From an uncultured virus (IMG/VR IMGVR_UViG_3300021197_000882) (Duplodnaviria; Heunggongvirae; Uroviricota; Caudoviricetes): a stretch of 28,107 nucleotides of DNA. Positions 2,755 to 28,099 of this stretch are shown one piece after another. The first letter of the stretch is position 1, and every line of letters starts with the position of its first letter. Below the pieces are notes generated by a model that saw nothing but the letters and a program-made list of their open reading frames with translations, did no database searches and was not told where the DNA came from. Made by a program: the position numbers and the translations under genes. The stretch is taken from IMG/VR virus record IMGVR_UViG_3300021197_000882. One strand, written 5' to 3'.

Positions 2755-2755
2755 T

Positions 2756-10088: not shown

Positions 10089-12664
10089 TGACAAAAATAG
10101 AGAGTGGTGGCATAGCCGTAGAAGTGGGCGAAGAAGATTTGAAGACCATAGCAGGAATTACTGCTAAAGGAAAGAGAAGAAGAAAGGAAACTGAAATCAT
10201 AGAACAATGGAGTAAACAGTATCTTGAGCAAAACAAGGTAGATAGAACAGACAAAAATTATCTAAAAGATAGAAAGTTGTTTAAAGAGGCTCTAGGAAAC
10301 ACCTTAGAAGACCTAGAATCAAGTGAAGAAGTTATTGATGTCGCAAGTATAGAAGAACAAGTAAATAACTATTCAAGGCAACTAATGTTAGAAGGCAGAA
10401 GGGGCAGACCTATTGAGGCAAGAGATATAGTAAGTAGGAGATTGCCCGAAGATTTCAATATTACTGCTAGTAAAGAAGTTCAAGACCGAGTAAAAATAGG
10501 AATAGAAAAAAGACTGGGCATGGGTGCCTTTGGCTCTAATAAAATAGCGCAGGATAATCTTTTATTTATTTTAGAACGAATAGAAGAAGTTGAGGCCGAA
10601 CCAAAACAGAGAGAACTAAAATATCCTTTAGGTGAACTTATGGGAGCAGTCGATGTTTCTAAAGGAGAGACTAGAAAGAAAGTCTACAAGTTTTGGGCTA
10701 ATGTAGTAAAAGAAAAGGAAGGAGTTTTTTTACAATCCTTGGAAGATTTATCTCAACTACTAAAACAATTAGATAATGAAGAGGCTAATAAATTTATTTC
10801 TAGATATGATTTGGATGGTGGAGATTATACACAGTTTGTTTATATTGCTGACTTTCCCTTTGCTGATGTTCTAGTAGCAGATGCCGGAGCAAGGTTTATT
10901 CTTCTGTTGATTAGAATTATGCAAGCACAAGGATTGTATGATAAAATATCAGAAATGAAAGATACTCCCGAAGAAAGACAAAGAGAAGAAAATATTTCCG
11001 GAGGAAAACAAGAGGCTATGGAACAGGCGTTTCTAAATGCCGTTGGTTCGGATAGTCAATATACAGGGGCTACTATATCAGAAGATGATTTGAATTCTGC
11101 TTCGGAGGAATTTGAAGAATTGCCAGCCTTTATGGAAAAAGCAAAATCTATTCCTGCTAAAGCAGACCCTTTGTTAGTATGGGAAAACAGTAGAAATGTA
11201 AAACTGGTAGCGATAATAAAAAAGCACTATGATATTCTAAAGACATACTTAGAAGGGGCGTTGGCTCAAGATGATTTAACTTTCAGTGTTAGAGGAAATG
11301 TTAGTAGATTACTAGACGAATTGGAAGATACTCTAGCAATAGAAGGAATAGAAGAAAACCCCGAAGGGGAGAATTCTACTTTCCCATTTGCTTTACCTCT
11401 TTCTGTTCTAGCGGATAAATCATTTTATGTTGTCTATGGCAGAATGGAAAAAGGATTTTATCCGTTATCTACTCGAGATGGAGGACAGAGGGTAAATTTA
11501 GACTATGATAAAACAATAGACTATGATAATATGAATTTTATTAAAGAGTTTTTCAATGACCTTGCTTCTTTAGTTTTAGTTTCCGATAAGAAATCATTCC
11601 CTCAAGGTGCTAGAGAAGCAGTAGGGGTAAGAGCCACTAGGGGACAAGATAAGACCATTACTGATTTTAAGGACACTCAAAGAGGTTCAGCGATACAATC
11701 TTATGCTAAAGACACGGCGTATAAACCAACACCTCCAAAACTAGAAAGCACTTTTAAAGAAGGAGAGGCAAAAGAAGTAGTTAAAAAATTCTTCAAGGCA
11801 GCAGAAGAATACTACTACGAGCCAATGAATAAAGGAATGCTTCCAGTTTCAGTTCCTTCTTTCTATAATGCAGTCGGTGGTAAAGTAGTAAAGGAAATAA
11901 ATAAACTGTTAGGTAATTCAACGGGAATCACTAGCCCATTCTTTAGAAGCACTAGAAGATTCGAAAAAATTACACCTAACGATTTTAGAAATATAATAGA
12001 TTATTTAAAAGACTATCAAGACATTGACACCAATGTTACTAATGATTTAATTACCGCAGGTAAGAGAGCAGCAAAATCTCTTAAAAAGTTCGGAGTAGAA
12101 TCAAGCGATGCTCTAGGTTTTATTTCTTTATTGTTATTTAATATCATGGACGAAACTCAAGACTTTAGTAAAAAGAATAGAAAAATAAAAGGTAAGACTA
12201 TAGAAGAAAGAGCAAATGAAACTAGAACGGGTTCTTCTTCATTTAAGTTGGATTTCATAAATACTCTAGAAGAAAAACAAAGTCTGTTTGCCGGAGGAAG
12301 CAGGGAAGAAAGTAAAAGAAGAGAGGCTTATTTCGAACTAATGGAATTGCTAAGAAATAGTGTAAAAGAAGACTCCCCCGTTACTATTGGTAAAATGATT
12401 AATAAAAAACTACTTAATGCTCATGATGTTATTAGAAAGGCATTAGGAAAAGAAACTGTATATGGTTTCTTGCCTTTGACTTTTGATAGTGTAGACCTAA
12501 TGATAGAGAAGATGCACAAAGAAGAAAATTTAGATTTAAGTCACATGGAAGTAGAAAGTATTGTTAAGTCAATTGATTCTCATGATTCCATAGGTAGAGA
12601 CTATGGCATAACTGCTGACCATGTATATTTAATTAAGGCTAGATTTAGACAAAGGGTTTGGTAA
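10088..12664 (+). CDS. Large hypothetical protein (858 aa)
   Basis: Long ORF, TAATG overlap with the upstream gene, GGAGGA RBS; no motif recognised. Confidence 0.75.
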   Translation: MTKIESGGIAVEVGEEDLKTIAGITAKGKRRRKETEIIEQWSKQYLEQNKVDRTDKNYLKDRKLFKEALGNTLEDLESSEEVIDVASIEEQVNNYSRQLMLEGRRGRPIEARDIVSRRLPEDFNITASKEVQDRVKIGIEKRLGMGAFGSNKIAQDNLLFILERIEEVEAEPKQRELKYPLGELMGAVDVSKGETRKKVYKFWANVVKEKEGVFLQSLEDLSQLLKQLDNEEANKFISRYDLDGGDYTQFVYIADFPFADVLVADAGARFILLLIRIMQAQGLYDKISEMKDTPEERQREENISGGKQEAMEQAFLNAVGSDSQYTGATISEDDLNSASEEFEELPAFMEKAKSIPAKADPLLVWENSRNVKLVAIIKKHYDILKTYLEGALAQDDLTFSVRGNVSRLLDELEDTLAIEGIEENPEGENSTFPFALPLSVLADKSFYVVYGRMEKGFYPLSTRDGGQRVNLDYDKTIDYDNMNFIKEFFNDLASLVLVSDKKSFPQGAREAVGVRATRGQDKTITDFKDTQRGSAIQSYAKDTAYKPTPPKLESTFKEGEAKEVVKKFFKAAEEYYYEPMNKGMLPVSVPSFYNAVGGKVVKEINKLLGNSTGITSPFFRSTRRFEKITPNDFRNIIDYLKDYQDIDTNVTNDLITAGKRAAKSLKKFGVESSDALGFISLLLFNIMDETQDFSKKNRKIKGKTIEERANETRTGSSSFKLDFINTLEEKQSLFAGGSREESKRREAYFELMELLRNSVKEDSPVTIGKMINKKLLNAHDVIRKALGKETVYGFLPLTFDSVDLMIEKMHKEENLDLSHMEVESIVKSIDSHDSIGRDYGITADHVYLIKARFRQRVW

Positions 12665-12666
12665 TT

Positions 12667-13191
12667 ATGGCTGTAACTATTTCAAATCAATTGTATTCCG
12701 AAGAGGACATGCTTAGGATTTGGAATGGCTACTGGACTAATAATAATAAAGCGTATCTAAAGTTACCTAGAAGGCAGAGGGCAACTATTAAAACTACCTT
12801 GTCTGCTGTCAATCCAATGTATTTTATTTCTTATGATGGAGAAGTCCCTGTTGCGTATAGTGGTATTGAGGATAACGGTTTATTTTATGCAAGTGCCGGA
12901 ACTTATGTTATTCCTGAATATGAAAATCAAGGGGTTGCTGGAGAATTAGTGAATAAAAAAATGAAAAAGTTTGGTTCAAAACCTGCAATTACTTTCATTA
13001 ATAATCTAGAGCCTTATTGGAAAGGGTTTTTTTTAAGAAGAGGGTGGCAAGTAGTTGATATGAACGATTTACCTAAGACTATTCCTAGAGACATAGTTCA
13101 AAAAGAAATAGATGCTTATGGTGAAGATAATGTTTTAATCTATAATAATGTAGTTACTAAGGCTTGGCATTCAATTTTAAAGAGATGGTAG
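12667..13191 (+). CDS. GNAT-family N-acetyltransferase with C-terminal tag KAWHSILKRW
   Basis: YVIPEYENQGVAGELV matches acetyl-CoA-binding motif A (V.P.Y[RQ].xG.[AG]); also PVAYSGI strand and N....GFFLRRGW motif B. ATG 12667 preferred over TTG 12658. Confidence 0.7.
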   Translation: MAVTISNQLYSEEDMLRIWNGYWTNNNKAYLKLPRRQRATIKTTLSAVNPMYFISYDGEVPVAYSGIEDNGLFYASAGTYVIPEYENQGVAGELVNKKMKKFGSKPAITFINNLEPYWKGFFLRRGWQVVDMNDLPKTIPRDIVQKEIDAYGEDNVLIYNNVVTKAWHSILKRW

Positions 13192-13192
13192 T

Positions 13193-14617
13193 GTGGATAT
13201 AGAGGCTTTAAATTTTGAACACCAAATGGATATGGAATTATCTAAAAACTCATTTCCATACTTCTTTCAAAATGTATTAGGTTGGGAGTTTGCTAAACAT
13301 CAAGAAGAGTGGCTAGAACTTATGGGAGATACTCAAAGAACTGTTATTATTTGTTCGAGAGGTCACGGTAAATCAGTATTTATGCACGCTTGGGTAGTAT
13401 GGAATTTGATATTTCAAGAACCACCATATCAAATGCTATACATTTCTTCTAACCAAAAGCAGACTATGGTTCACATGAGAGACATAGATAAACTATTCAA
13501 CAATCCTTTGCTTAAAAAATTTAAACCCGCAAGAGGTTGGGCTATTGGAAACATTACTTTGACAAACGGTAATCAAATTTTAGAGCGTTCCGTTGGTTCA
13601 CAGATTCGTGGTCTTCACCCTCAAGAGATTATTATTGACGACCCTTTGAAAGAGTTTAGTATAAGCGGAATTCAAAAAGTAACTGATTGGTTTTATGGTG
13701 ACATGATACCTACTCTTCACCATTCAGCATCGTTAAGAGTTATAGGAACACCATTTAGTTATACAGATATATACGCCCAACTTTCAGAAAATCAAGCATA
13801 TACTCTTAGAACCTATCCTTGCCTTAATGCGCTCAATGAACCATTATGGCCTAATAGATGGGACTATGATTCACTTATGGCTAGAAAGGCGGAAGTAGGG
13901 ACATTAATGTTTACAAGAGAGTATATGTGTGTACCTATTTCTACTGGTACTTCGCTATTTAATCCTGAATATTTGGAAGCAGCCAAGAATAGTAGTTTTG
14001 TTTTGAGGCCACTAAAAAGAGAAGGCTACAAATATTTTGTTGGTATTGACCCTGCCATTTCTACTGATGGAGACTACAATGTAATCACAGTTATTGAAAT
14101 GGATGAAGAAGAAAACAAATCAATCATTTATGTAGATAGAGCAAAGAATGTAGAGTTTAGAGAAAATATACAAAAAGTAAAACTAATCAATCAAGTTTTT
14201 AGACCCGAAGCAATACTCTTTGAAACAAATACTTTCGCTAAATCGTTTACACAAGAACTACGACAAGTGGCTGATATAAACTTACATGATTTTAATACTA
14301 CTAGAAAAAAGAAACAGGAAATAATTTTAAATTTACAGATGAGTTTAGAAAATAAAAAAATGAACTTTCCTTATGGTAATGAAGAAAGTAGGAGAGTTAC
14401 TTCTGCTTTAATCGAAGAGTTGTCTATGTTTGCCATTACTGAAAGAGGTAAGTTTGAAGGAGTCGGCGCACATGATGACATGGTTATGAGTTTAGCATTA
14501 GCAAACGCCGCTACTTACCAAAGTTCAGATAAATTCATACTCTTGGACAATATGGGATTATTTGATGACCCTAAACCTAACCGTAATTCGGGTGGATTAT
14601 TAGGACTAAATTTTTGA
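13193..14617 (+). CDS. terL: Terminase large subunit
   Basis: Walker A SRGHGKS, Walker B IIIDD, coupling motif VIGTP, RNase H-like nuclease VGIDPA and HDDMVMSLALA. Confidence 0.95.
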   Translation: MDIEALNFEHQMDMELSKNSFPYFFQNVLGWEFAKHQEEWLELMGDTQRTVIICSRGHGKSVFMHAWVVWNLIFQEPPYQMLYISSNQKQTMVHMRDIDKLFNNPLLKKFKPARGWAIGNITLTNGNQILERSVGSQIRGLHPQEIIIDDPLKEFSISGIQKVTDWFYGDMIPTLHHSASLRVIGTPFSYTDIYAQLSENQAYTLRTYPCLNALNEPLWPNRWDYDSLMARKAEVGTLMFTREYMCVPISTGTSLFNPEYLEAAKNSSFVLRPLKREGYKYFVGIDPAISTDGDYNVITVIEMDEEENKSIIYVDRAKNVEFRENIQKVKLINQVFRPEAILFETNTFAKSFTQELRQVADINLHDFNTTRKKKQEIILNLQMSLENKKMNFPYGNEESRRVTSALIEELSMFAITERGKFEGVGAHDDMVMSLALANAATYQSSDKFILLDNMGLFDDPKPNRNSGGLLGLNF

Positions 14618-14626
14618 GGTGAGAGG

Positions 14627-15985
14627 ATGAATCTAACGATAGATGAACTAGAAGACGCCGAAGAACAATTTGGTAGGCTGAAGGAATTAAGCCAACAAGA
14701 AGAAGAGATAATAGAAGGCCTTCCCGAAGATATTGAGGTTTCAAAACTATTATCTACAGATTATGTCATGTCCGAAGTAGAAGAATTAACTCTTATTTCA
14801 AAAACCTATTCTATTAATGCCAGTGAAGCAAAAAAAATAATGAATGTTTTTCCCAATGAATATATTATTCATGAACAAAATGTACCGGAACTGGTAAAAA
14901 AAATGAGAAACAATAGAAGACAACTAAAAGGTAATCTAAGAGAAAATATGACGAAGGCGATTGATGTTGTTATAGATGCATATAGTGAACATATAGGAAA
15001 ATCAATTGATAGTATCTATTGGCTATCACCTTACAAAGAAGTGTTTAGAAAAATGAGATTTTCCGAGAAAGATTTAGCCAAACTAAATAAAATGAAAGAT
15101 TTAGAATCTAGAAGAAATGTAGTAGATTCTCTCTGTAAATATTGGGAAGCAGAACTAGATAGAGAAGGCATGGCCTACTCAAAGGAGTATAGCGTCTTAT
15201 CTAAAAATATGTCAACTGCGAAAAAAGAGTTCAGAAAATGCTTGAAGGCAGTTGCTATTCAAACTCTAAACAAAAGTAAGAAACAAAGGCAGTTAGAGTT
15301 TATAGAATATACAATAACAAAACATCAAGGAATAACAGCAAAAGGAATACATGAAAAAATGCCTAGTGATATGTTTCATATTACTAATCCTAATATTATA
15401 TCTAAGTCTATTAAAAAGTTAGAAATCGCTTCAAGTGACGGATGTTATTACAAAGTTCCTTCTCTTATTAAAAAGAATATTTGGGCTTATACTGCGGCAT
15501 TTATTGACTCGGATGGCTATATTACTTTAGATAGAAATATGAATCCTAGAGTTGGGTTAGTGGCTACTGGTGAAAGAGGAAAGGTATTTATGAAAGAAAT
15601 GCATAAGTCAATTGGTTTTGGAAGAATGCACTTAGACCAAAAATCACCGCAAGATACTAGGCTAATTAACCGTCTAAATTTTTATTCTCAAGCAGATGTC
15701 AGTGAACTATTAACTAAATGTTTACCACACTTTAGATTAAAGAAAGGTAATGCTAAATTACTGTTAGAATTAATTCGTATGAAGAAGTCATATAAAAAAG
15801 CAGAATGGTATAAACCTAGATGCGATGAAATTTTCAAGTTAATGAAATGGGAAAACCATAGAGACCATGTTGGTTTTGATTGGCTAAAAGAAGGAATATA
15901 TCTTGACGATATTCAAAAATATAAAGACAACTGTAAAATATCTGTTATGGATGAACTAGAAAACATCGGAGGAATACTGGCGTGA
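14627..15985 (+). CDS. LAGLIDADG-domain protein with long N-terminal helical extension
   Basis: WAYTAAFIDSDGYI at 15482-15523, then a typical LAGLIDADG scaffold (FMKEMHKSIGFGRM...LLTKCLPHFRLK); GAGGTGA RBS. Confidence 0.8.
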   Translation: MNLTIDELEDAEEQFGRLKELSQQEEEIIEGLPEDIEVSKLLSTDYVMSEVEELTLISKTYSINASEAKKIMNVFPNEYIIHEQNVPELVKKMRNNRRQLKGNLRENMTKAIDVVIDAYSEHIGKSIDSIYWLSPYKEVFRKMRFSEKDLAKLNKMKDLESRRNVVDSLCKYWEAELDREGMAYSKEYSVLSKNMSTAKKEFRKCLKAVAIQTLNKSKKQRQLEFIEYTITKHQGITAKGIHEKMPSDMFHITNPNIISKSIKKLEIASSDGCYYKVPSLIKKNIWAYTAAFIDSDGYITLDRNMNPRVGLVATGERGKVFMKEMHKSIGFGRMHLDQKSPQDTRLINRLNFYSQADVSELLTKCLPHFRLKKGNAKLLLELIRMKKSYKKAEWYKPRCDEIFKLMKWENHRDHVGFDWLKEGIYLDDIQKYKDNCKISVMDELENIGGILA

Positions 15986-16128
15986 ATGCAGAAGAGTGGG
16001 TAATTAGTAAACAGAAACTACAGTTCAAGTATTGTGGTAGATGCTTTACTGTTAAAGATGTTCATCCATTCGGATTTTGTAAAAAGTGTTGGGAGCAAGC
16101 CGGTAAGCCCAAGGGGATGAAAGCATGA
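15982..16128 (+). CDS. Small CxxC-x11-CxxC zinc-finger protein, 48 aa, missing from the ORF track
   Basis: GTG start after GGAGGA: MNAEEWVISKQKLQFKYCGRCFTVKDVHPFGFCKKCWEQAGKPKGMKA*; GTGA/ATGA overlaps at both ends. Confidence 0.75.
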   Translation: MNAEEWVISKQKLQFKYCGRCFTVKDVHPFGFCKKCWEQAGKPKGMKA

Positions 16129-16502
16129 GTTGGCAGGACATATTGAAAAAGAAAAAGAAGCGTAAAACAAGTCCTTGCTGTTATAGAAAGGTAAGTGTTA
16201 GATATAAAGGTGGAAATTCTGCATACAGAAGTGGTGCTTTTGTAGCGTGTGATAAAGTAGGTTGTGAAAATTGGGGTAAATCTGTAAAAAAGGCTAATCC
16301 TTTGAAAACATGGTTTGAACAATCGGCTAGAGGCGAAAAAGGAAAACCGAAAGTAAAGGGTTGGGTTTCTTGCCAATCATGTGAAGATGATAAAGCAGGA
16401 GCAAAACCTTGTGGAAGAAAAGATGCTTCTAAAGGAACTAAACAAAGATGTAGACCTACTTGTGCGGCTTGTAAAACCTATAAGAGAAGAAAGGGGAAAT
16501 AA
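16125..16502 (+). CDS. WxxILK-tagged basic Cys-rich protein
   Basis: MSWQDILKKKKK. The segments CYRKVSVRY..SAYRSGAFVACDKVGCENWG and LKTWF..GWV..KPCGR..RCRP recall small basic domains of marine phages (from memory). Confidence 0.75.
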   Translation: MSWQDILKKKKKRKTSPCCYRKVSVRYKGGNSAYRSGAFVACDKVGCENWGKSVKKANPLKTWFEQSARGEKGKPKVKGWVSCQSCEDDKAGAKPCGRKDASKGTKQRCRPTCAACKTYKRRKGK

Positions 16503-17554: not shown

Positions 17555-18127
17555 ATGAGTTGGATGGATATTCTAAAAAGAAAGTGGCAGGGCAAACTGT
17601 CTGCTAATCGTAAGGAATCCTTAGATAGAACTCCATCTATTAAAATAAAAATACCTAATATGAGTTATCCCGACGAAGAAAAAGAGATTTCCAAAGTTCT
17701 AAAAATTATGAAAGATAAAAAACTTAAACCAAAAGAAATGGACGATGCTGACCTAAAACCGGATATAGAAATGTTTGATATTGTTGGGGAAGATGGTGAT
17801 GACTATGAAGATTTTATATTAGATATAAATCATTATGCTATTACTGAAAAAATGAAATACAATAGACCCAGACCATTTCAAGTAAGTGAAGAAATACCTA
17901 CAACAAAGACAACCACCGATGATACTCCTGCTTTTCCTAGTGGTCATGCTATGCTAGGCTATGGATTAGAAAGAATACTTAGTAGTAAATTTCCAAATAA
18001 GAAGAAACAGTTAAAAGAAATGGCTGATAGAATAGCACTATCTAGGATTCAAATGGGTAGTCATTATCCAAGCGACATAGAAGCCGGAAAGAAAATAGGA
18101 TATATGTTAGGTGATGCTTATGAGTGA
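17555..18127 (+). CDS. PAP2/acid phosphatase-vanadium haloperoxidase superfamily phosphatase, WxxILK-tagged
   Basis: All three family motifs present: KMKYNRPRP (KxxxxxxRP), PAFPSGH, SRIQMGSHYPSD (SRxxxxxHxxxD). AGGTGA RBS. Confidence 0.9.
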   Translation: MSWMDILKRKWQGKLSANRKESLDRTPSIKIKIPNMSYPDEEKEISKVLKIMKDKKLKPKEMDDADLKPDIEMFDIVGEDGDDYEDFILDINHYAITEKMKYNRPRPFQVSEEIPTTKTTTDDTPAFPSGHAMLGYGLERILSSKFPNKKKQLKEMADRIALSRIQMGSHYPSDIEAGKKIGYMLGDAYE

Positions 18128-18482
18128 CTGGCAAGATATTCTTAAAAAGAAAAAGAAACCTAAAAGTCCTAGAACCAAAGCACTAGAAAGAGCAAGAAAA
18201 AAGGGTCTCAAAGGGCTTAACAAACCTCAACGATTAACAAGTCATAAGACTAAATCTCATCATGTTTACGCATGGGAGAATAAAAAAGGAAAATATATTC
18301 CTTTTGGACAGAAGGGAGTCAAAACAAATCAAACAAAGGGACAAAGAGAAGCCTTCAAATCTCGTCATGAAGAAAACATTAAGCGTGGAAAAATGTCTGC
18401 GGCATATTGGGCTGATAAGGTAAAATGGAGTCCAAGTAAAACCAAAGAAAAGAAAAATAAGAAGTGGCGGAAGGGCAGTTAA
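18120..18482 (+). CDS. WxxILK-tagged basic protein
   Basis: Start reassigned to ATG 18120 (MSDWQDILKKKKK) after AGGTGA. NKPQR..KSHHV..IPFGQKG..FKSRH..KMSAAYWADKVKW recalls a widespread small phage protein family (from memory). Confidence 0.8.
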   Translation: MSDWQDILKKKKKPKSPRTKALERARKKGLKGLNKPQRLTSHKTKSHHVYAWENKKGKYIPFGQKGVKTNQTKGQREAFKSRHEENIKRGKMSAAYWADKVKWSPSKTKEKKNKKWRKGS

Positions 18483-18534: not shown

Positions 18535-20169
18535 ATGGTCGAACAAAAAAGATTTTCTCTTCGTAATTTATTTAGAAGGACTACTCCTAAACCGGCTGAT
18601 AGAGAAATCTACAATATAGGAATACAAGAGAGGCCTAACACCTATCATATGACAGCCCCTCTTATTTACAGCATCGTCAATCAGTCGGTCATAGTTAGAA
18701 CTTGCATTACCCAACTAAAGCAAGAAATATTTAGAAGAGGATATGTATGGGAAAAGGCATACGAAGCCCTTTGTTTAGACTGTGGTAAAAAACACCAAAG
18801 GCCTGTCTCCGAGTGTTCTAGATGTGGTAGTGAAAAACTAAAAACACCCGATGTAGACCAACTAAAATATGCTGAAAGTTTTATTGAGGGATATGTAAAC
18901 AAATCTGAACAATTATTCATTGATGTGATGAAGCAATTAGAAGATGACCTTAATGTTATGGACGATGCCTACATTGTTTTAGTTAAAGAGTATTTCTTAG
19001 ATGGTAATGGTAAAATAAGAATGCATCGAATAAAAGAATTGTATAGGGGAGACCCTGCGACAATGTACATTTATTCAGATGAATATGGGGAAAGAGGAAA
19101 TAAAGCATTTACTTGTGTAAATCATAGAACCTTTTTCTCTACTGAACCGCATGTTCCCTGCGAAGAATGCGGTGCTAAAACTTTCCCTGTTCACTATGTT
19201 AATAGAGCCACTGGGGAAGAACAGTATTTCTTGAAAGGAGAAGTATTGCATTTCAGTAAATACAGTCCTTCTAGATTATATGGACAGTCTCCAATAGTTA
19301 CTCTATTCAATAATATTATGACATTACTTGCTATGGAGAATTATGTCAATTCTTCCTACACTAAGAGCAGAATGCCTAGAGGACTACTAGCCGTTCAAAC
19401 TAGAAACATGGAGTCAATGCAATCTTTTTGGAAGGCTGTAAAAGAAAAGATGGAACAAGACCCCCACTTTATTCCTATTATGGGAATAGAAGCAGAAGGC
19501 AAAGGTTCGGTAGAGTGGATTAAGTTTATGGATAGCCTAAAAGAAATGGAATATGTTTCTGTTAAGGATGATTTAAGGGATAGAATTTCTGCTTTCTTCG
19601 GAGTAAGTAAGGTCTTTATGGCAGATAATACTACTAGTGGGGGATTAAACAATGAAGGTATGCAGATACTTGTAACTAATAGAGCAGTTCAAATGGCACA
19701 AAATGTCTACAATAATTATGTATTCCCTTTCCTTGTAAAACAATTCGGAATCACTGATTGGAATTTGAAATTACCTCCAAGTGAAGAGGAAGATGAAATT
19801 GCAGTATTAAGAAAGAGAGAGATTGAAGTTAATATTGCGGCCTCTACTAAGAATCTAGGCTTTGAAGTTGATATGGACGAAGATGGAAACTTTACTTTCA
19901 AAAAGCCTGAACCTGTGGAACAACCTGCACAAGAAGGCTCCAAACAAGATAATGTAGAATTAGACCCTTATGCGGGAACTAATATTGATGCTTCACAAAT
20001 GGGTCAAATGCAAGAAGAAATGATGCAAGGTTCAAAGAAACAGGAAAATCCCGCTACCACAAGAAATAAACCTTCTATGAGTGTAGGGCCGGATAAGCGA
20101 CTTACAGGATTACCCGAAGATGCAGGAAATCAAAATGTGGATAGAAGAAGCGAGAGGCGAATACCATGA
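18535..20169 (+). CDS. Portal protein with two zinc-ribbon-like insertions
   Basis: Portal-like segments FLKGEVLHFS..SRLYGQSPI, YTKSRMPRGLL and RDRISAFFGVS; lies between TerL and protease/MCP. Confidence 0.85.
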   Translation: MVEQKRFSLRNLFRRTTPKPADREIYNIGIQERPNTYHMTAPLIYSIVNQSVIVRTCITQLKQEIFRRGYVWEKAYEALCLDCGKKHQRPVSECSRCGSEKLKTPDVDQLKYAESFIEGYVNKSEQLFIDVMKQLEDDLNVMDDAYIVLVKEYFLDGNGKIRMHRIKELYRGDPATMYIYSDEYGERGNKAFTCVNHRTFFSTEPHVPCEECGAKTFPVHYVNRATGEEQYFLKGEVLHFSKYSPSRLYGQSPIVTLFNNIMTLLAMENYVNSSYTKSRMPRGLLAVQTRNMESMQSFWKAVKEKMEQDPHFIPIMGIEAEGKGSVEWIKFMDSLKEMEYVSVKDDLRDRISAFFGVSKVFMADNTTSGGLNNEGMQILVTNRAVQMAQNVYNNYVFPFLVKQFGITDWNLKLPPSEEEDEIAVLRKREIEVNIAASTKNLGFEVDMDEDGNFTFKKPEPVEQPAQEGSKQDNVELDPYAGTNIDASQMGQMQEEMMQGSKKQENPATTRNKPSMSVGPDKRLTGLPEDAGNQNVDRRSERRIP

Positions 20170-20399: not shown

Positions 20400-22058
20400 A
20401 TGTCTTTATTTTTCAAACAAGAAGATGAAGAAGACGAAGAAGATGAAGAAGATGATTTTATACCCGATGAGATAGCAAGGGATTTAGAAGAAGATAAAAA
20501 AACAGATGAAGATTTTAGTGAAGGTCTTGACCCATTAAAAGATACATCTAAAGAAACAGAAACAGAACAAAAAGTTTCTCAATTAGAATCCGATATGGCT
20601 AAAAAGCGGAGAAGAAAACCCGCTAGAGATATTAGAATCTTAAATCAATATCTTGAGGATATCAAAAGCATAAAAGAAACCGGAACTGAAACGGATGGAA
20701 TATATGATAGAGCCTCTAGAGCCAAATTTAAGAAAATAAGTAAGGCTAACATAAATATAATTTTTGATAAGATGGTTTTTTTACAAGTTAGAAGAAATCT
20801 TTTAACAGAGCAACCTTATGAAGAATTTATTGTGGACGGCAAGTTTAGACTAGGAGAAGGAGATAGTTCTCAATTAATAGATGTTAAGAAACTACAAAGA
20901 GAATATTCCGAATTGGGTTCGGATTCCGAGTTTATGAAATTTTTATCAGGTTTATATTCCAGAAGATTTAATGGAGAAGTTCCAAAATCAATGATAGATA
21001 AAGCAACTGCTAGACAGCAATATAACAGATTGATAAGTTCTGTTATAGTTGGAGACCCTAGCGGTGGTATAGTAAAACAAAAAGAAATACTAACTGATTT
21101 ATCTAGAGACTTGAATAGAAGTTTATTTGTTTTTACTGAGTTAGAAAAGGCTAGAGAAGTTTTAAGTAAACAAATTGACGACCTCGAAACTTTAGTAGAT
21201 GATGATTTAGAAATACTAATTGATAGAAGATTAAAGGCTTTAACATTAGCATACTCTACTGTTCAAAGAAAGGTCGCTGAATATGTAACTGGGAAACTTT
21301 CCGATACTATTCCGGAGAAAGAAGACGATGTTAAAACAGAAGAAAGGGAACCGTACAGAGGCGGAGGAAGCAAATTAACAGAAGCATCTAGAGCGATGAG
21401 GGAAGCCGAAAGAAAAAAATTACAATTCAAAAAAGGAGAAAAAAGTTTGACTCCGAGGCAATTAGTTCAAGAGGCTAAAGAAAAAGTTAGGGTTAAAATA
21501 GGAGATACTCCTAGAAGATTAACTCAAACTGAAATAAAAGAAATGTTAGATGCTCTTAAATCCTCACAACCCGAAGTATTAGAAGAAGCCAAATTAGAAA
21601 TTCAAAAAGAAATAGAAGGACAACTAGAAACAGAAAAGGATAGGCTTTCTACAATAGAAGGGAGGCTTAAAATTTTTAATAAATATAAGCCCCTGCTTTT
21701 AGAATCTAAAGACCTAGTAGGAAAATATACCGGAAAGAAAGATATTTTTGAAGAACAGGTCTCTTTGGCAAATAAGGCGAAACTTGCTGCTATGGGAATA
21801 AAAGAAATAGAAGGTATTCTTAAACAACTAAATGCAGAAAACGATAAGTCTATGGAAGAGTGGCTAGAAAATGCAGAAGAAGCAGTTATTATAGAAATGA
21901 CTAGAGAAGGCAAAATAGGAATGGGTATAGGAGACACTACTCTAAAAGAAGTTAGACTAGTGGGAGAATTAGCAGATAGAGTAAATGCTAGATTTGATTC
22001 TTTACAAGAACAGATAAATGTAGTTAATAATAAAATAAAAGAGAGTGATGAAGAATGA
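20400..22058 (+). CDS. Coiled-coil-rich protein with acidic N-terminus
   Basis: AGGTGAT RBS at 20390-20396; EDEEDEEDEEDD tract; long charged helices. Confidence 0.75.
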   Translation: MSLFFKQEDEEDEEDEEDDFIPDEIARDLEEDKKTDEDFSEGLDPLKDTSKETETEQKVSQLESDMAKKRRRKPARDIRILNQYLEDIKSIKETGTETDGIYDRASRAKFKKISKANINIIFDKMVFLQVRRNLLTEQPYEEFIVDGKFRLGEGDSSQLIDVKKLQREYSELGSDSEFMKFLSGLYSRRFNGEVPKSMIDKATARQQYNRLISSVIVGDPSGGIVKQKEILTDLSRDLNRSLFVFTELEKAREVLSKQIDDLETLVDDDLEILIDRRLKALTLAYSTVQRKVAEYVTGKLSDTIPEKEDDVKTEEREPYRGGGSKLTEASRAMREAERKKLQFKKGEKSLTPRQLVQEAKEKVRVKIGDTPRRLTQTEIKEMLDALKSSQPEVLEEAKLEIQKEIEGQLETEKDRLSTIEGRLKIFNKYKPLLLESKDLVGKYTGKKDIFEEQVSLANKAKLAAMGIKEIEGILKQLNAENDKSMEEWLENAEEAVIIEMTREGKIGMGIGDTTLKEVRLVGELADRVNARFDSLQEQINVVNNKIKESDEE

Positions 22059-22417
22059 CATGGGACTATTATGAAGAAGGAAAGGAATTTGACATCTCTA
22101 AAGAAGAAAAAAAATCTCAAGATGTTTTGAGTTCTTTAGGCTCTAAAGAGAAAAAAAGACTTAAGAAAACCTTACAAGCGGCTGAACCAACAGAATTCTT
22201 TGGTCAAGATTTTACTAAACTAGGTGACTTGTTAGAGATGATAGAGGGGCTAGATTTTACTAAATCTGACAAAGCCCTAACTAAGAAAGTAAAATCAATG
22301 GATGAAAGGAATATTGATATAGTCGCTACCGCTACGAAACTTCGTAAAGAGTATGAACTTCTTTACCGACAGATTCGAGATTTGGTATATCCTAAAAGAA
22401 AAGGTGAAGAAAGATGA
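22055..22417 (+). CDS. Hypothetical protein (120 aa)
   Basis: GAGTGA RBS; ATGA overlaps at both ends. Confidence 0.7.
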   Translation: MTWDYYEEGKEFDISKEEKKSQDVLSSLGSKEKKRLKKTLQAAEPTEFFGQDFTKLGDLLEMIEGLDFTKSDKALTKKVKSMDERNIDIVATATKLRKEYELLYRQIRDLVYPKRKGEER

Positions 22418-22644
22418 GTAAAGAAAGTACAATTAATGAAGAACTACTTGAGATTATAAAAGCCCTTAGTTCTAAAATAGAAGGTTTAGAAAAAGCGGTT
22501 TACAACAAAGATAACTTATTGATGAAATCGGGCTTTGTTGTAGCGAATAGTCCTTCTCCTACAATGAAAGTAATTGATAGTAGTGAAGAAGTAGCAACTA
22601 TGGATTGGAGCGAAATTCATAAAATGGTGGATAACATCGGGTGA
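22414..22644 (+). CDS. Mini-scaffold-like protein ending MDWSEIHKMV
   Basis: N-terminal coiled coil (LLEIIKALSSKIEGLEKAV); C-terminus nearly identical to the protease/scaffold C-terminus. Confidence 0.7.
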   Translation: MSKESTINEELLEIIKALSSKIEGLEKAVYNKDNLLMKSGFVVANSPSPTMKVIDSSEEVATMDWSEIHKMVDNIG

Positions 22645-22648
22645 TTAT

Positions 22649-22888
22649 ATGCCGGAGAGAGTAACTAAGGAAGAACGAATTATTTCTATGACAGTAGAGA
22701 AAGCCAAAGAGGTTAAGGAAATGCTCCACCAGTCTCTTACGGACAACAATAGAAACCCTTCGGAAGATGAAAGCGAAGCAGTTAAAATAAAAAGACCTAA
22801 AGACACTAAAGAAGAAAATGTTCCTAAAAGTCAAAAAGATGGAACTAATGTAGGTTACGGCCAAGCCGGAGATACATATGATTTCTAA
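22649..22888 (+). CDS. Hypothetical protein (79 aa)
   Basis: GGGTGA RBS; fills the gap before the ligase. Confidence 0.65.
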   Translation: MPERVTKEERIISMTVEKAKEVKEMLHQSLTDNNRNPSEDESEAVKIKRPKDTKEENVPKSQKDGTNVGYGQAGDTYDF

Positions 22889-22902
22889 AGGGCGGGGTTA
22901 TT

Positions 22903-25392
22903 TTGAAACTCGGCTCTTTTGAAAAGGACAAGCGTTCATCAATAGAATTAGTAAAATTGTTTGAAATATCTAGAGTGGCTTTTTTATCTGCTAATAGTGA
23001 CCCAAAAGAATACGGTCACAAATGGCGAAAGGCTGTAGAACAAATAAAAGAATCTTATGAAGAACTAGATGTCGCTGGAAGAGAGTTAAAAAATTTTATA
23101 GAAGGAAGACTCTTAGAACATAGAGATACTAGTGACCCAACTTCTCCTCAAGCAAGAGAATTGTACGAAGATATTAAATTAGTTAGATATAAATCCGATG
23201 TTGTTATTGACCCCTTCTCTAAAAGATTTGGGGAAGGTGTTTTAGAGGAACTTTTAGATAACCCTGAATCAATGGTTAAGTTTGTTCATTATGCTATTAG
23301 AGATAATACTCATGCTTTAGGAAAAGAAACTTTAGCAGTAAAGGACATGACAGAAGACGACCTTACCGATGGACTACTAGGTTTAGATTTGGAAGCAGAC
23401 GACATTGCTCTATACATTATAGAAAACTATGGCGACGATAAGGACTCTAAAAAGGTTGAAGCAAAAGTAAAGGCCGCTATGGATATGTTAGAGTTGTTAT
23501 ATTTTTCTCAGCACAGTGAAGAGGAATGGAAAGAACTTAAGGATATTGATATGAAAAAGGCAGAAAAAGCCCAAAGTGATTTTATTATTCCGAACAAACC
23601 GATGTATCGCATATTTGAAATAGAAGATATGAACGAATTAAAAGGTTTTAGCGGGGAATATTTAGTACAGGAAAAGTATGATGGTATGAGAATACAACTA
23701 CATAAAATAGATAATAATGTAAAAGTGTATTCTTACAATGAAAAAGATATAACCGATAAATGCAAAGACATAGTTAAAGAGTTGAAAGCAAAACACTTTG
23801 GGGAATGTATTCTAGATGCTGAATTAATTTTGTTTGAGGGAAAAGAGGCACTACATAGGGCTGATACTATTTCTCATGTGTTCAAAGATAAATACCCCGA
23901 TGCCACATTAAAGGCGCATGTTTTCGATATTATGCGACATGATTCTCAAATGTTACTAGAAGAAGAACTAGATAGTAGAATAAGAACTTTGTTTAACAAC
24001 TACTCCGAACATTCTTCTGAAGTTTTATTATTCCCTTCTAAGAAAGACACTAGATTTGCAGACTCTATAAAAGAAGTAGAATCCTACTCGAAGGATATTA
24101 TGGAATTGCCTACTTCGGAAGGAGTCGTAATTAAAGACATAACTTCAACTTATTATCTAGGGACTAAGAAAAATCCTAAATGGATTAAGTGGAAGAAGTT
24201 TGTAGATTTGGATGTAGTAGTTCTTAGTAAAACAAAAACAAAAAGTGGACTGCATTCCTATTCTATCGGTGTTGGGCCAATATTAGACGAGATACCAAAT
24301 ACTGTAGAAATAGATGAAGTAAAGTATCTAAATGTAGGAAAGGCGTTGAATACTAAAATATCAGTAGATGTGGGCGACATTATTAGAGTAAAAGTAGATG
24401 AAGTTAAGAAAACTTCTATGGGCTATTCTTTACATTCCGCTAAGGTTATAGAGATACCCGAAGTAGAATATCCTGATAAATTAGTTACTTTAGAGATGCT
24501 TTCTAGAGATACTAAGAAGTCACTAAACTACGATGTGTCTGCTCTCACAAAGGGAATAAAGATAACGGATTACATTCATGGTGAAACTACTGCTATAATT
24601 AAATATAATATGGAGGGCTTTACTTTATATGGTTTCGAAGAAAATAATCTAATGTCTAAGAACGCTTTAGCCGATTTAGATATGTGGAAAGGTAGAGCAG
24701 AGGAGATAATGAAAACTAAACAAGGAGAACTTACTGCTGCTATTCATCAATTTTTAACTAGTAAAGGAGAGCAAACTACTGCTCAACTACATGAGTTTTT
24801 GATAACTAATCATAAAGACCTGTATGAAGATATATTAGACTCTAAACAAAGAGACCTAAAAGATTGGGCTGTTCAAAGAGAACCTATATTAGAAGGCCAA
24901 AGTAATAAGATAAAGGCAGACCCAGAATTTAAATTTGGTTCGGATGAGATTAAAAAATACGAAACTCCTAAAGAATATAGACAAGGAGAATTTAAGATAT
25001 CACTTAGAGAAGACGACAATATTCAATTTTCTATTCGCTTAAAAGATAAAAATCTTCATTGGACAATAGAAGTGGATGATGAAAAGGAACTGTTTGATTT
25101 ATTTGGTGCTGCTGGTAAATACCCAGCACAAGTTTCAGATAATGTACAAACTAAAAAGACCATAGATTATGGTAAAATAAAACTAGGTATTCAAAGAAAT
25201 GGCTATCATGAGTATTTCCTAGAAGGTAATAAGTTTGAAACTAAACTACACATAAGGTATTTGCCGGTAAAAGATAAGAAGATGTGGTTGGCATGGACTG
25301 GATATGAACAAAAAGCCGCCGATAAATCGGGAGATGAGGGTATTTGGGACATTTATGAAGATAAGTTTAGTTCTGTTAAATTACCAAACTAA
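22903..25392 (+). CDS. lig: ATP-dependent DNA ligase with N- and C-terminal extensions
   Basis: Motif I EKYDGMR (23671-23691), III ILDAEL, IIIa VFDI, IV EGVVIK, V WIKWKK, followed by an OB-like region (LDVVVL..SYSIGV..NVGK). Confidence 0.9.
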   Translation: MKLGSFEKDKRSSIELVKLFEISRVAFLSANSDPKEYGHKWRKAVEQIKESYEELDVAGRELKNFIEGRLLEHRDTSDPTSPQARELYEDIKLVRYKSDVVIDPFSKRFGEGVLEELLDNPESMVKFVHYAIRDNTHALGKETLAVKDMTEDDLTDGLLGLDLEADDIALYIIENYGDDKDSKKVEAKVKAAMDMLELLYFSQHSEEEWKELKDIDMKKAEKAQSDFIIPNKPMYRIFEIEDMNELKGFSGEYLVQEKYDGMRIQLHKIDNNVKVYSYNEKDITDKCKDIVKELKAKHFGECILDAELILFEGKEALHRADTISHVFKDKYPDATLKAHVFDIMRHDSQMLLEEELDSRIRTLFNNYSEHSSEVLLFPSKKDTRFADSIKEVESYSKDIMELPTSEGVVIKDITSTYYLGTKKNPKWIKWKKFVDLDVVVLSKTKTKSGLHSYSIGVGPILDEIPNTVEIDEVKYLNVGKALNTKISVDVGDIIRVKVDEVKKTSMGYSLHSAKVIEIPEVEYPDKLVTLEMLSRDTKKSLNYDVSALTKGIKITDYIHGETTAIIKYNMEGFTLYGFEENNLMSKNALADLDMWKGRAEEIMKTKQGELTAAIHQFLTSKGEQTTAQLHEFLITNHKDLYEDILDSKQRDLKDWAVQREPILEGQSNKIKADPEFKFGSDEIKKYETPKEYRQGEFKISLREDDNIQFSIRLKDKNLHWTIEVDDEKELFDLFGAAGKYPAQVSDNVQTKKTIDYGKIKLGIQRNGYHEYFLEGNKFETKLHIRYLPVKDKKMWLAWTGYEQKAADKSGDEGIWDIYEDKFSSVKLPN

Positions 25393-25410
25393 TCCGAAAA
25401 TACCATGTTC

Positions 25411-25418
25411 TTTATATA
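25411..25418 (+). promoter_or_regulatory. Putative archaeal TATA box TTTATATA ahead of the protease-MCP genes
   Basis: Matches the TTTAWATA consensus and sits in one of the few intergenic gaps. Confidence 0.55.
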
Positions 25419-25431
25419 GTGAAAGTATAAG

Positions 25432-26700
25432 ATGACTAAAACGAGAGTTATGAGTTCTGCGGTGATAAGCAATAGAGCCAATGACTTTAGTATCTTAAAG
25501 GGTAGTCAAGACTTAGTTATCGGTGGATATGCAAGTATTGAGATTGTCGATAAGCAAAATGATTTAATTACATTAAAGGCTTTAGATGAAGCAGTAGTTA
25601 AGTATATGCAAAACCCTAAGTTTAGAAATGTTATGACAAATCATTCAAATGTTCAAGTTGGAGAAGTAGTAAAGTCTTATAGAGATAAGACAGGAAAACT
25701 TTGGAAAACTGAAGTAGACGATGTTGGATTCTTTGTTGTAATTAAACTAAGAGACGACATAGAGAAAGCCAAAGAAATAAACAGAGGCGTTAGAAAAGGT
25801 TCATTACGGTCATTTAGCATAGGAGGGCAAGCATTACAGAAAGTAAAGAAAAGCCATCCTGAGTTGGGAGACTATAATGAGATAAGCAAACTTGAATTGC
25901 ATGAAGTGACGATTTGTGAAAAAGGAATTAATCCGGAAGCACGATTTGATATTCTAAAACAAGACAAAAACACAAAGGAAGTGAAACAAATGACTAAACT
26001 AGAAAAAGCATTGGCGGAACTTGACACTCTAATGGAGCAAGTCAATACGCTACGAAAAGAAGAAGCAGAAGAAATGATGGACACTACTAAAGAGTCTATG
26101 GAAGATGAGAATATGTTAGAGAGAGCAGATGGTGAAAAAGAATCTATGGAAGAACTGGAATCTATGGAAGAACTGGAATCTATGAAGGAAATGGAAAGAG
26201 GTGCATACAAAGATGTTATGTCTGATAAAGCACTATTATCTACTCTAGATGGAGCCGGTGTAGAAATCGGAGAACCTGCGGATAGAATCGTTATTGATAA
26301 CGGAAACCCTAAAGCAAGTGGACTACCTGTTGTTAAAGCATTTAGCAACACTGAGTTAGATACTCTTAACCTTTCTAATCTAAACATTGAGAAGGCATAT
26401 GAATCTTACAAACAAGAGCAACTAGAAAAGATGGCTCTAGATAACCTAGAGAAAACCTTCAGTGCAAGATTCGGTGCTGAAAAAGCACAAAGAGAAACTA
26501 TTTTGTCAAAGGCTCAATATGATGCACAGACTGAAATTGCTTCACTAAAAGATGAATTTACTCAACTAAGAAAGTCTTTGACTGCTGAAAAAGAAACTAT
26601 TCTAAAGGCACAAGAAGCAGCAGTAGCAGAACTCCCAAGTATGGATGAAATGGCTAACATGGATTGGTCAGACATTCACAAAATGGTAGGAGGTTATTAA
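25432..26700 (+). CDS. HK97-type prohead protease fused to C-terminal scaffold (start possibly ATG 25450)
   Basis: IGGYAS..VDKQNDLI, catalytic His (TNHSN), catalytic Ser (SFSIGG), LHEVTIC..GINPEARF; then an acidic coiled-coil scaffold; directly upstream of MCP. Confidence 0.9.
   Translation: MTKTRVMSSAVISNRANDFSILKGSQDLVIGGYASIEIVDKQNDLITLKALDEAVVKYMQNPKFRNVMTNHSNVQVGEVVKSYRDKTGKLWKTEVDDVGFFVVIKLRDDIEKAKEINRGVRKGSLRSFSIGGQALQKVKKSHPELGDYNEISKLELHEVTICEKGINPEARFDILKQDKNTKEVKQMTKLEKALAELDTLMEQVNTLRKEEAEEMMDTTKESMEDENMLERADGEKESMEELESMEELESMKEMERGAYKDVMSDKALLSTLDGAGVEIGEPADRIVIDNGNPKASGLPVVKAFSNTELDTLNLSNLNIEKAYESYKQEQLEKMALDNLEKTFSARFGAEKAQRETILSKAQYDAQTEIASLKDEFTQLRKSLTAEKETILKAQEAAVAELPSMDEMANMDWSDIHKMVGGY
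26140..26193 (+). repeat. 18-bp tandem repeat x3 (GAATCTATGGAAGAACTG) encoding ESMEEL-ESMEEL-ESMKEM
   Basis: Two perfect copies plus one degenerate copy. Confidence 0.9.
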
Positions 26701-26701
26701 G

Positions 26702-28099
26702 ATGACAGGATATATTAACACAATTGCAGATTTAGAAAGACAGACATACGGAGTATCGGGTATTAGCAATCAATTGCTAAAACAAAGTGGTGCAGTTCAA
26801 GCACTACATAGTGGCCACGATACCACACTAGGAGTAGGAAGCGGAACAGGTACTATTGGAGATACCGCCGCTTTGTACAATAGAGTATTTGGCCAAAAGG
26901 TTTGGTCAATGTTAAACCGAGAATGTAATGCACTTTCCGTTATTTCAAAGAGACCATATGTTTCAAGTGGTTGGAGAGTATTGGTAGAAAGACCTGCTGG
27001 CGGTAGTGGAAATTCACTAGATGTAAGCGCAAGAGTCGGTGCTAATTCTGATGCATTCCTTGGAGCAACTTCTCTAAGACCTGACTTGATGGGTGGTGTT
27101 CCGGAAAACGCTAAACTAGGTACTAACGCTGATGGACTATTCTCCATCGCACCAAAGTATTCTACACTATTTACAAGCCCTAAGATTATTGCACATCAAT
27201 TCGAGTTCTCTGAACTTGCTATGGAAATGGCACAAATTGATGATGGTATTGGCGATATTAGAGCGCAAATGCGTGAAGATATGGGTAAGCACCATGCTGA
27301 AGTACAGAATCAAATGCTTGTTATGCCGCTAGAAGTTTATGACTTTGATGGTGGAGTTACAACAACAATCGCAACTATCGAAAGAAACTATACTTCTTTG
27401 CTAAAGATTGTTTCTAACAACACAGAATTACAAAACATGAAGGCTAACGATTTGATTAAGAACGGAACATACGATGATACAAACACAGCAAATGGTGTAG
27501 CAGAAGTTTCTACTCTATTCGGTAACAGTGATAGAGCCGCTACAACTTCTTCTTTCATGAATGCAGTTGTAAACTCAGGTGGTACTGGTCTATCTTCTTA
27601 TTCCGCAACTGGACAAAGAGCATTGACACTAAGTACAATTAACCAAACTCTAAGAGAAATCCGTCAAAACGGTGGTTCACCAAAGGTTATACTAACAGGA
27701 TATGATACTCTACAAACATTGAGTGACTTGCTACAAGCACAAGAAAGATTCATGGATGGTAAAGAAATTGTACCAACCGTAAACGGTGTTCGTGGTGTAA
27801 AGGGTCAAGAAGTTGGATTTAGAGTTTCTACTTACTACGACATCCCACTAATTCCTGTAGCGGCTATGCCATCTACAAAGCACCACTCTCTAACAACTGG
27901 ACTATCCGATATGTTGATTCTAGATACTGACCATTTGTGGCTATCGGTTATGAAGCCAACTCAATACTTTGAAGATGGTATTAGTAACGGAAACCCATTC
28001 GGTGTTGGAACTCTAGGGAACCAAGCCCTTTACCGTACTATCGGTGAAGTTGGTTGTTCATACTTTAGAGGACAAGGCAAGATTACAAACTTAGTTTGA
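26702..28099 (+). CDS. Major capsid protein (HK97 fold expected)
   Basis: Follows the protease/scaffold; GGAGGT RBS; 465 aa. Segments such as GGVPEN, PKIIAHQFEFSELA, GGSPKVILTG and YYDIPLIP fit archaeal tailed-virus MCPs. Confidence 0.85.
   Translation: MTGYINTIADLERQTYGVSGISNQLLKQSGAVQALHSGHDTTLGVGSGTGTIGDTAALYNRVFGQKVWSMLNRECNALSVISKRPYVSSGWRVLVERPAGGSGNSLDVSARVGANSDAFLGATSLRPDLMGGVPENAKLGTNADGLFSIAPKYSTLFTSPKIIAHQFEFSELAMEMAQIDDGIGDIRAQMREDMGKHHAEVQNQMLVMPLEVYDFDGGVTTTIATIERNYTSLLKIVSNNTELQNMKANDLIKNGTYDDTNTANGVAEVSTLFGNSDRAATTSSFMNAVVNSGGTGLSSYSATGQRALTLSTINQTLREIRQNGGSPKVILTGYDTLQTLSDLLQAQERFMDGKEIVPTVNGVRGVKGQEVGFRVSTYYDIPLIPVAAMPSTKHHSLTTGLSDMLILDTDHLWLSVMKPTQYFEDGISNGNPFGVGTLGNQALYRTIGEVGCSYFRGQGKITNLV

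Follow-up and report, generated by a model that had tools for sequence, protein, structure and literature searches.

The stretch of DNA analyzed here, 28,107 nucleotides from an uncultured virus (IMG/VR record IMGVR_UViG_3300021197_000882) and referred to below as the window, is the head module of a magrovirus, a virus of marine archaea. Magroviruses are described as abundant viruses that infect uncultured marine group II archaea (PMC5434244). All long open reading frames (ORFs) of the window lie on the plus strand, on which ORF analysis combined with Pfam and PHROG searches gives the order of a T4-type large terminase (13193-14617), the portal (18535-20169), a small protein of 76 amino acids (22414-22644), an ATP-dependent DNA ligase (22903-25392), a protease-scaffold protein (25432-26700) and the major capsid protein (26702-28099). 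We are concerned here with a short peptide that forms the C-terminal tail of two of these proteins, the protease-scaffold and the small protein, with its potential role in head assembly, and with a related terminal peptide, the W-x-x-I-L-K tag, found on many other proteins of the window. We know of no work on how magrovirus heads are built.

The protease-scaffold consists of a prohead serine protease (residues ~21-180) fused to a scaffold region (residues 187-422). It belongs to the Pfam family Peptidase_S78, whose curated threshold of 21 bits is exceeded by a match of 37.1 bits across residues 28-180 (E 4.6e-9), and it also matches the PHROG head maturation protease (E 3e-15); H71 and the serines S124, S127 and S129 are invariant in our alignment of scaffold relatives. 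The stop codon ends at 26700 and the capsid gene starts at 26702, so that a single base separates the two genes, the adjacency expected of an internal scaffold. The capsid protein, the presumed docking partner in what follows, was recognized by Pfam SU10_MCP (E 3.8e-8) and by the PHROG major head protein (E 4e-17), and its nearest named relatives, with 22-23% identity, are the capsid proteins of HVTV-1 and HCTV-1/5, tailed viruses of haloarchaea.

By direct reading of the translations, the protease-scaffold ends in the tail MDWSDIHKMVGGY (26659-26697, stop codon 26698-26700, plus strand) and the small protein in MDWSEIHKMVDNIG (22600-22641, stop codon 22642-22644, plus strand). In their wider context these ends are ..LPSMDEMANMDWSDIHKMVGGY, with the M of MDW encoded at 26659, and ..EEVATMDWSEIHKMVDNIG, with the corresponding M encoded at 22600; the last ~20 residues of the protease-scaffold are LPSMDEMANMDWSDIHKMVGG. 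The two tails, 4.0 kb apart, had been placed at 26659-26700 and 22600-22644 in the original prediction, and both are indeed there. The peptide that they share is 10 residues long, of which 9 match, and 24 of the 30 underlying bases are identical. A serine is encoded by AGC in one copy and by TCA in the other, which argues that the tails are kept at the peptide level and are not a recent DNA copy. When the complete proteins were compared by BLASTP, only 17 residues aligned, 12 of them identical (E 2e-6), and the profile-profile comparison of the two families likewise aligned only those 17 C-terminal columns (probability 95%, E 2.5e-8). The idea that the small protein is a shortened scaffold was therefore ruled out; because the alignment is confined to 17 columns, the tail is the only part that the two proteins share, and the small protein carries its copy of the scaffold tail as a separate module.

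Both proteins, and the tails of both, are conserved throughout the lineage. Scanning viral contigs yielded at least 568 stretches that encode relatives of the scaffold, and the best 80 were taken as a first locus set, in which the tail is present in all 78 complete homologues, as W..IHKM in 77 and as W..VHRL in one. Along the protein, conservation extends over the protease (residues 21-175), a helix at 187-210 and the region 265-400, an acidic segment at 211-260 is highly variable, and the tail (401-420) roughly equals the protease core in conservation, with L401, P402, A408, W412, I415, H416, K417 and M418 invariant. The small gene, complete with its tail, occurs in 42 of the 42 loci that have more than 4.2 kb of upstream DNA, where it precedes the scaffold gene by 2.8-3.7 kb. 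Among the 41 distinct small proteins aligned, the invariant residues of the N-terminal part are L12, I14, K16, A17, L18, K21, E23, L25, E26, Y30, L36, K38 and G40 and those of the tail are M63, W65, I68, H69, K70 and M71, and the linker between the two parts varies. Conservation of both C-termini was a check set beforehand, and poor conservation of the scaffold C-terminus would have spoken against the original prediction; instead, this end shows very strong conservation and recurs on a small protein that is itself conserved.

The small ORF evolves as a coding sequence. In nine pairwise comparisons, 77, 37 and 174 differences fell at codon positions 1, 2 and 3, respectively, and 138 of the changed codons were synonymous as opposed to 80 non-synonymous; this third-position bias and excess of synonymous changes indicate that the ORF is a real gene. 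Its product matches no family in Pfam or PHROG, and its neighbors in the Atlas form unnamed viral clusters of 300, 321 and 50 members. Since both peptides are short, one could ask whether their likeness is a chance or compositional artifact, or whether the 76-amino acid ORF is a gene at all. The significance of the 17-residue alignment, the unbroken presence of both tails in the first locus set, the coding type of the substitutions and the Atlas clusters refute such an explanation, to which we assign practically no probability.

The AlphaFold2 model that was built on the alignment of small proteins predicts a helix at residues 3-30 (predicted local distance difference test, pLDDT, up to ~90), disorder at 39-64 and a second helix at 65-75, with a mean pLDDT of 68.5. 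The N-terminal helix has the heptad spacing of a coiled coil (L11, I15, L18, I22, L25 and V29). The small protein had been proposed as a possible auxiliary scaffold, and this predicted build, a heptad helix joined by a disordered linker to a helix at the C-terminus, fits that role.

The protease-scaffold gene might additionally give rise to a scaffold-only product (25990-26700, plus strand) that starts at a conserved internal methionine, Met187. In 45 of 45 aligned homologues, KLEKAL is preceded by a methionine at a distance of no more than 4 residues, the Shine-Dalgarno-like sequence GGAAGTGA lies ~6 bases upstream of the Met187 codon, and four database proteins of 209-227 amino acids begin at this position. 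This suggests either a nested product, which would parallel lambda Nu3, or genes that are split in some of the relatives.

To cover lineages beyond that of the window, we used a library-wide HMMER search with the scaffold (1,167 proteins at E <=0.001) and a second set of 80 loci seeded with one distant scaffold homologue. Full-length homologues at 33-59% identity end in LSWGDIHNLA, MDWNDINALV, MDWNEIHATL, MSWEEVHQLAG, MSWDEIHGLF, LSWEEVNELV, MSWDEVHSLA, ASWGDIHKMA or MSWQELEAFV. In the second set, a candidate for the small protein is present in 28 of the 28 loci that exceed 10 kb and have 6 kb or more of upstream DNA, by our own reading of the output, and every clade has its own scaffold tail together with its own small-protein tail, as in the pairs MSWDEIHGLFSKHEGGI with MDWSELDELVGKLEGTL, MSWDEINEMVRELQ with MDWKDIDELVVRLSGE and MTWEEVHNLASK with MSWEEIHDMAQQ. 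Near-identity of the two tails is therefore confined to the clade of the window and one other. What is generally kept across clades is [ML]-x-W-x-[DE]-[IVL]. In the 46 distinct scaffold tails collected from 147 loci, W is universal, as is M or L at -2 (46/46 each), E, D or Q occupies +2 in 45 of the 46 and H or N occupies +4 in 44, and K at +5 is limited to 17. The pattern M-x-W-x-[DE]-I-x-K, by which the tails had been originally defined, thus holds only for the clade of the window. The two tails of a locus might also covary: averaged over variable positions, their identity is 0.30 (15 tail-type groups; permutation p 0.036, with relatedness only crudely handled), weak evidence that the likeness of tails within a lineage slightly exceeds that between lineages.

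The W-x-x-I-L-K tag occurs at the opposite end of most of its carriers. A motif scan found 17 plus-strand ORFs, between 528 and 18146, that open with M-(x)-W-x-x-I-L-K, their tryptophan codons lying at 534, 1042, 1302, 2080, 2762, 3364, 4035, 4688, 5266, 7499, 7762, 8055, 16131, 16510, 16733, 17561 and 18129. A weight matrix was derived from these 17 N-terminal tags and scored against the 9,044 other positions of the 33 window proteins. The highest-ranking of these positions is a C-terminal tag, ..KAWHSILKRW (13159-13188, plus strand), on a GNAT-like protein of 177 amino acids, and the second is ..KSWMDILRY (6803-6829, plus strand) at the end of a 484-amino acid protein, where KSW[MI]DILRN is kept in 4 of 4 relatives. 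The search for relatives of the GNAT-like protein gave only two 12-residue matches. A further tag-like C-terminus, ..KSWSKFLRD (2043-2069, plus strand), belongs to a 258-amino acid protein that also opens with MSWKYILK. The loose form of the motif occurs 28 times in plus-strand frames and once in minus-strand frames. Leucine is encoded in the tags by CTA, TTA, CTT, CTC and TTG and isoleucine by ATA, ATC and ATT; with all synonyms of both residues in use, a DNA or RNA signal was ruled out, and the tag is a peptide signal. When five related records were searched with the back-translated tag pattern, there were 48 matches on the coding strand and none on the opposite one, with 4 control matches. 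In a complete record of 96 kb, the scaffold gene sits near 85 kb and all 12 tag matches fall within 60.6-73 kb, shortly before the head genes.

The reading that we consider moderately probable is that the shared tail is a capsid-docking peptide on both head proteins, with the small protein acting as a second internal assembly protein at the same site. The last ~20 residues of the scaffold would form a short amphipathic helix that anchors the protease-scaffold to the interior surface of the procapsid during assembly, with the N-arm of the major capsid protein, encoded directly downstream, as its probable contact. The 76-amino acid protein would join the same docking peptide, through a flexible linker, to its helix of the coiled-coil type; because it carries the docking peptide of the scaffold, it would be a second, small head-assembly protein with the same docking site, whether as an auxiliary scaffold, a modulator of occupancy or size, or an adaptor. 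Both proteins would then be located inside procapsids, to leave or be cut at maturation.

The closest known case is the pair formed by the scaffold of the staphylococcal phage 80alpha and CpmB of the parasitic island SaPI1. The last 16-21 residues of the 80alpha scaffold (gp46) are described as an amphipathic helix of 11 residues plus a hook that sit on a helix of the capsid N-arm, and CpmB, a protein of 72 residues, as combining an N-terminal dimerization domain with an almost identical helix and hook that bind the same site (Dearborn et al. 2017, PMC5644958). Here, too, a long scaffold and a protein of ~72-76 residues have only the C-terminal tail in common, and the small protein is predicted to consist of an N-terminal helical part followed by a linker. 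The differences are substantial. The tail motifs, RIIK there and MDWSDIHKMV here, show no sequence likeness; CpmB is the product of a parasitic island that shrinks the capsid of its helper, whereas the small gene belongs to the head module of the virus itself, in all 42 loci mentioned above and in other clades; the magrovirus scaffold is fused to a protease; and binding has been solved for 80alpha and CpmB, whereas the magrovirus case is known from sequence and predicted structure. Given that the small protein matches no Pfam or PHROG family, it would be an analogue of CpmB rather than a homologue, and a CpmB-like second scaffold or adaptor is the role for which it is a candidate.

The protease-scaffold can also be compared to other prohead proteases. 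The lambda C/Nu3 and P2 gpO proteins combine protease and scaffold and are targeted by the C-terminus. The HK97 gp4 protease reportedly is, too, a result that is ascribed to Duda and colleagues in 2013. In SPN3US, gp245 is described as a prohead protease with a C-terminal targeting extension (PMC7411985). The magrovirus protein resembles all of these as a prohead serine protease with a C-terminal extension, and a product nested within it would extend the similarity to Nu3; unlike in these systems, the terminal peptide recurs on another protein encoded separately, and many further proteins bear a peptide related to it. For the W-x-x-I-L-K tags, the best analogue is the capsid targeting sequence of T4, which is carried at the N-terminus by IPI-III and Alt, binds the scaffold core and is removed by gp21 (PMC7411985). 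In both cases, a short N-terminal peptide is found on unrelated proteins encoded near the head genes (17 ORFs in the window); the magrovirus tag, by contrast, can also be C-terminal, has ~17-20 carriers within 28 kb and is known from the genes alone. Encapsulins offer another parallel. Their targeting peptides, usually C-terminal and sometimes N-terminal, are reported to bring cargo to a pocket that is formed in part by the N-terminal helix of the HK97-fold shell protein (PMC8346489), and the tags and tails of magroviruses are likewise short terminal peptides. The encapsulin consensus SDGSLGIGSLKRS (GSLGIGSLK-type; PMC8346489) is, on inspection, unlike MDWSDIHKMV or W..ILK, so that the magrovirus peptides do not belong to this class of Family 1 targeting peptides, and encapsulins are cellular compartments free of a genome, as opposed to a true virus capsid with portal and terminase.

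Several observations weigh against a shared capsid-docking tail. Outside the clade of the window, the two tails are related and not identical (for example, MSWDEIHGLF as opposed to MDWSELDELV), so that in those clades they might bind different sites. The K at +5 and the M at -2 fall on the side of an ideal helix opposite to W, I and V and are nonetheless invariant in the clade, and thus a model of an amphipathic helix with a single face may be too simple. In the haloarchaeal HVTV-1, neither a scaffold tail nor a small protein was found: the protease ends in ..AAQQLYDL, and the 63-amino acid ORF that precedes it is cysteine-rich and lacks the motif. An AlphaFold2 model of the capsid protein built on 41 close sequences was unusable (mean pLDDT 42.1, predicted template modeling score 0.29), and profile searches among solved structures with the capsid and scaffold alignments gave no matches at E 0.01. 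The N-terminus of the capsid protein, the putative docking site, contains YINTIADLE..TYG, which is conserved in relatives, and differs between clades (GYINTIADLEAQTYG, GYFKTIGDLERATYG, LNQIRTIQDLEAATYG and YVRTITDMERYYYG); shared ancestry alone is sufficient to account for such clade-wise differences. The tail could instead bind the portal, an exosite on the protease domain or other scaffold molecules in self-assembly. The small gene is closer to the portal gene than to the capsid gene, and the predicted helix has invariant residues on its two faces, as would be expected of a buried peptide. The scaffold gene, however, abuts the capsid gene, and it is the capsid protein that is contacted by the C-terminal end of the P22 scaffold and by the tail of the HK97 protease. 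The same is reported for the C-terminus of the 80alpha scaffold (PMC5644958), and binding to one of these other partners seems to us quite improbable.

Whether the tags share the site of the tail is a separate question. According to the original prediction, the tags mimic the scaffold helix and load cargo by fitting, as do the scaffold tail and the small-protein tail, into one pocket on the capsid interior. Scored with the tag-derived matrix, the scaffold tail takes 4th place and the small-protein tail 10th place among the 9,044 positions. Tails and tags have in common the core W-x-[DE/N]-[IV] and its place at the end of a protein; the scaffold tails of other clades (MSW.E[IV]) open in the same way as the commonest form of the tag (MSW.D[I]); tags can stand at either end, with three at the C-terminus, of which one is the conserved tag of the 484-amino acid protein; and in related records the tagged genes lie on the coding strand only and cluster beside the head genes. 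Set against this, the tags do not follow the changes of the tail. In other clades, the tail changes at +4 to +7 (IHGLF, VHELM, INEMV, VNELV) and the tags remain W..ILK. The 68 loci in which the tail does not have HK at +4 and +5 yielded 58 tags; 35 of these read ILK, and the others are IIK, VLK and the like. Coding-strand M(x)W sites number 404 and include 70 with ILK, 12 with IIK and 5 with VLK, compared to only 3 that resemble the tail with [IVL][HN]. At +4, leucine occurs in 87 of the 110 tags, in contrast to the H or N that prevails in the tails. Furthermore, the tags owe their M at -2 to the start codon; this M is absent from those of the form MW..ILK and is replaced by K in the three C-terminal tags, and an initiator methionine that precedes serine or threonine is usually removed. 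The shared core and terminal position therefore stand, whereas the case for mimicry in the full sense is weakened, and we consider a common pocket with scaffold mimicry rather unlikely. Read from their sequences, the tags are a class of terminal peptides that is related to the tail but distinct from it and evolves separately. On ~20 other proteins, they plausibly also address their carriers to the head; a pocket common to tags and tails is possible without being indicated.

The tags might, alternatively, be leaders that, like the capsid targeting sequences of T4, are cut off by the head protease, here after I-L-K, with the I-H-K of the tail as an uncleavable look-alike, so that the likeness of tag and tail would reflect recognition by the protease rather than docking. 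The motif [IL]LK occurs at invariant sites of the scaffold (residues 21-23, 174-176 and 390-392) and of the capsid protein (25-27), which retains [LI][LM]K around residues 22-35 in every clade seen, and LLMKSG in the small protein (residues 35-40) resembles LLKQSG in the capsid protein. However, the scaffold sites at 21-23 and 174-176, which border the protease fold or form part of it, recur in distant S78 homologues and may thus be structural; the site at 390-392 reads IRK, IAK or IIK in other clades; and the 14 non-tag [IL]LK sites in ~9,100 residues are, as a rough estimate, about what composition predicts. We accordingly rejected the [IL]LK sites as firm evidence of cleavage, and regard protease recognition as possible though on the whole doubtful. 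In a broader and more speculative combination of these ideas, which strikes us as distinctly unlikely, head assembly would employ encapsulin-like addressing: a single groove on the capsid interior would receive three classes of peptides derived from one W-x-[DE]-[IV] helix, namely the scaffold tail, that of a universal coiled-coil protein of 76-100 residues and the tag on ~20 fast-changing proteins. Competition of the small protein with scaffold and cargo for this groove would set the cargo load or the capsid size of each particle, and the tags would be clipped after I-L-K.

In a search of the literature on magrovirus scaffold and capsid, on N-terminal motifs and on the motif strings, we found no description of the shared tail or of the tags; the main text of PMC5434244, supplements apart, contains neither "N-terminal" nor "motif". 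A portable docking peptide on two head proteins would provide an experimental handle that is independent of culture. Should only the part concerning the two tails hold, the arrangement that is divided between a phage and its parasite in 80alpha and CpmB would also exist built into an archaeal virus. If the tags use the same or a neighboring site, they would represent a natural, general system for loading proteins into an HK97-type virus capsid, and if true, such loading would bear on the delivery of proteins along with viral DNA and on capsid engineering.

The tagged proteins themselves are diverse. Five consecutive paralogous ORFs of ~193-226 amino acids (2074-5263) share the tag and a leader of ~35 residues, M.W.DILKETITQGRVKEIEDIDIDIEDDDC, and then diverge. 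A phosphatase of the PAP2 family (17555-18127, E 1e-13) carries an N-terminal tag, and the C-terminally tagged protein encoded at 12658-13191 shows a weak match to GNAT acetyltransferases, below the Pfam cut-off. Large proteins are tagged as well: in ten loci of other clades, a protein of 700-830 amino acids that opens with MWETILK or MSWQLILK is encoded directly upstream of the small gene (~2.5 kb upstream). In the window, the ORF directly before the small gene (22055-22417, 120 amino acids) opens with MTWDYYEEG, that is, M-x-W without ILK, which may be a decayed tag. Among the 20 translated coding sequences of HVTV-1, no tags were seen. Two very basic tagged proteins (16125-16502 and 18120-18482), the first of which is also cysteine-rich, have a poly-lysine run directly after the tag (MSWQDILKKKKKRK); one of them has a weak match to DUF7208, and both may be DNA-binding internal proteins.

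Two further genes of the module connect the window to described magroviruses. Between the terminase gene and the tagged genes that follow it lies an ORF of 452 amino acids (14627-15985) with a LAGLIDADG-like segment, FIDSDGYITLD, and a weak match to a PHROG endonuclease, and a homing endonuclease has been reported in magrovirus structural modules (PMC5434244). With a ligase and a LAGLIDADG-type endonuclease in the structural module, relatives located on contigs of ~90-96 kb and a link to haloviruses, the window fits the description of magrovirus groups A and B given there. The DNA ligase, encoded between the small gene and the protease-scaffold gene, is 829 amino acids long, of which the ligase domain covers only residues ~246-431; the flanking ~240 N-terminal and ~400 C-terminal residues match no family.

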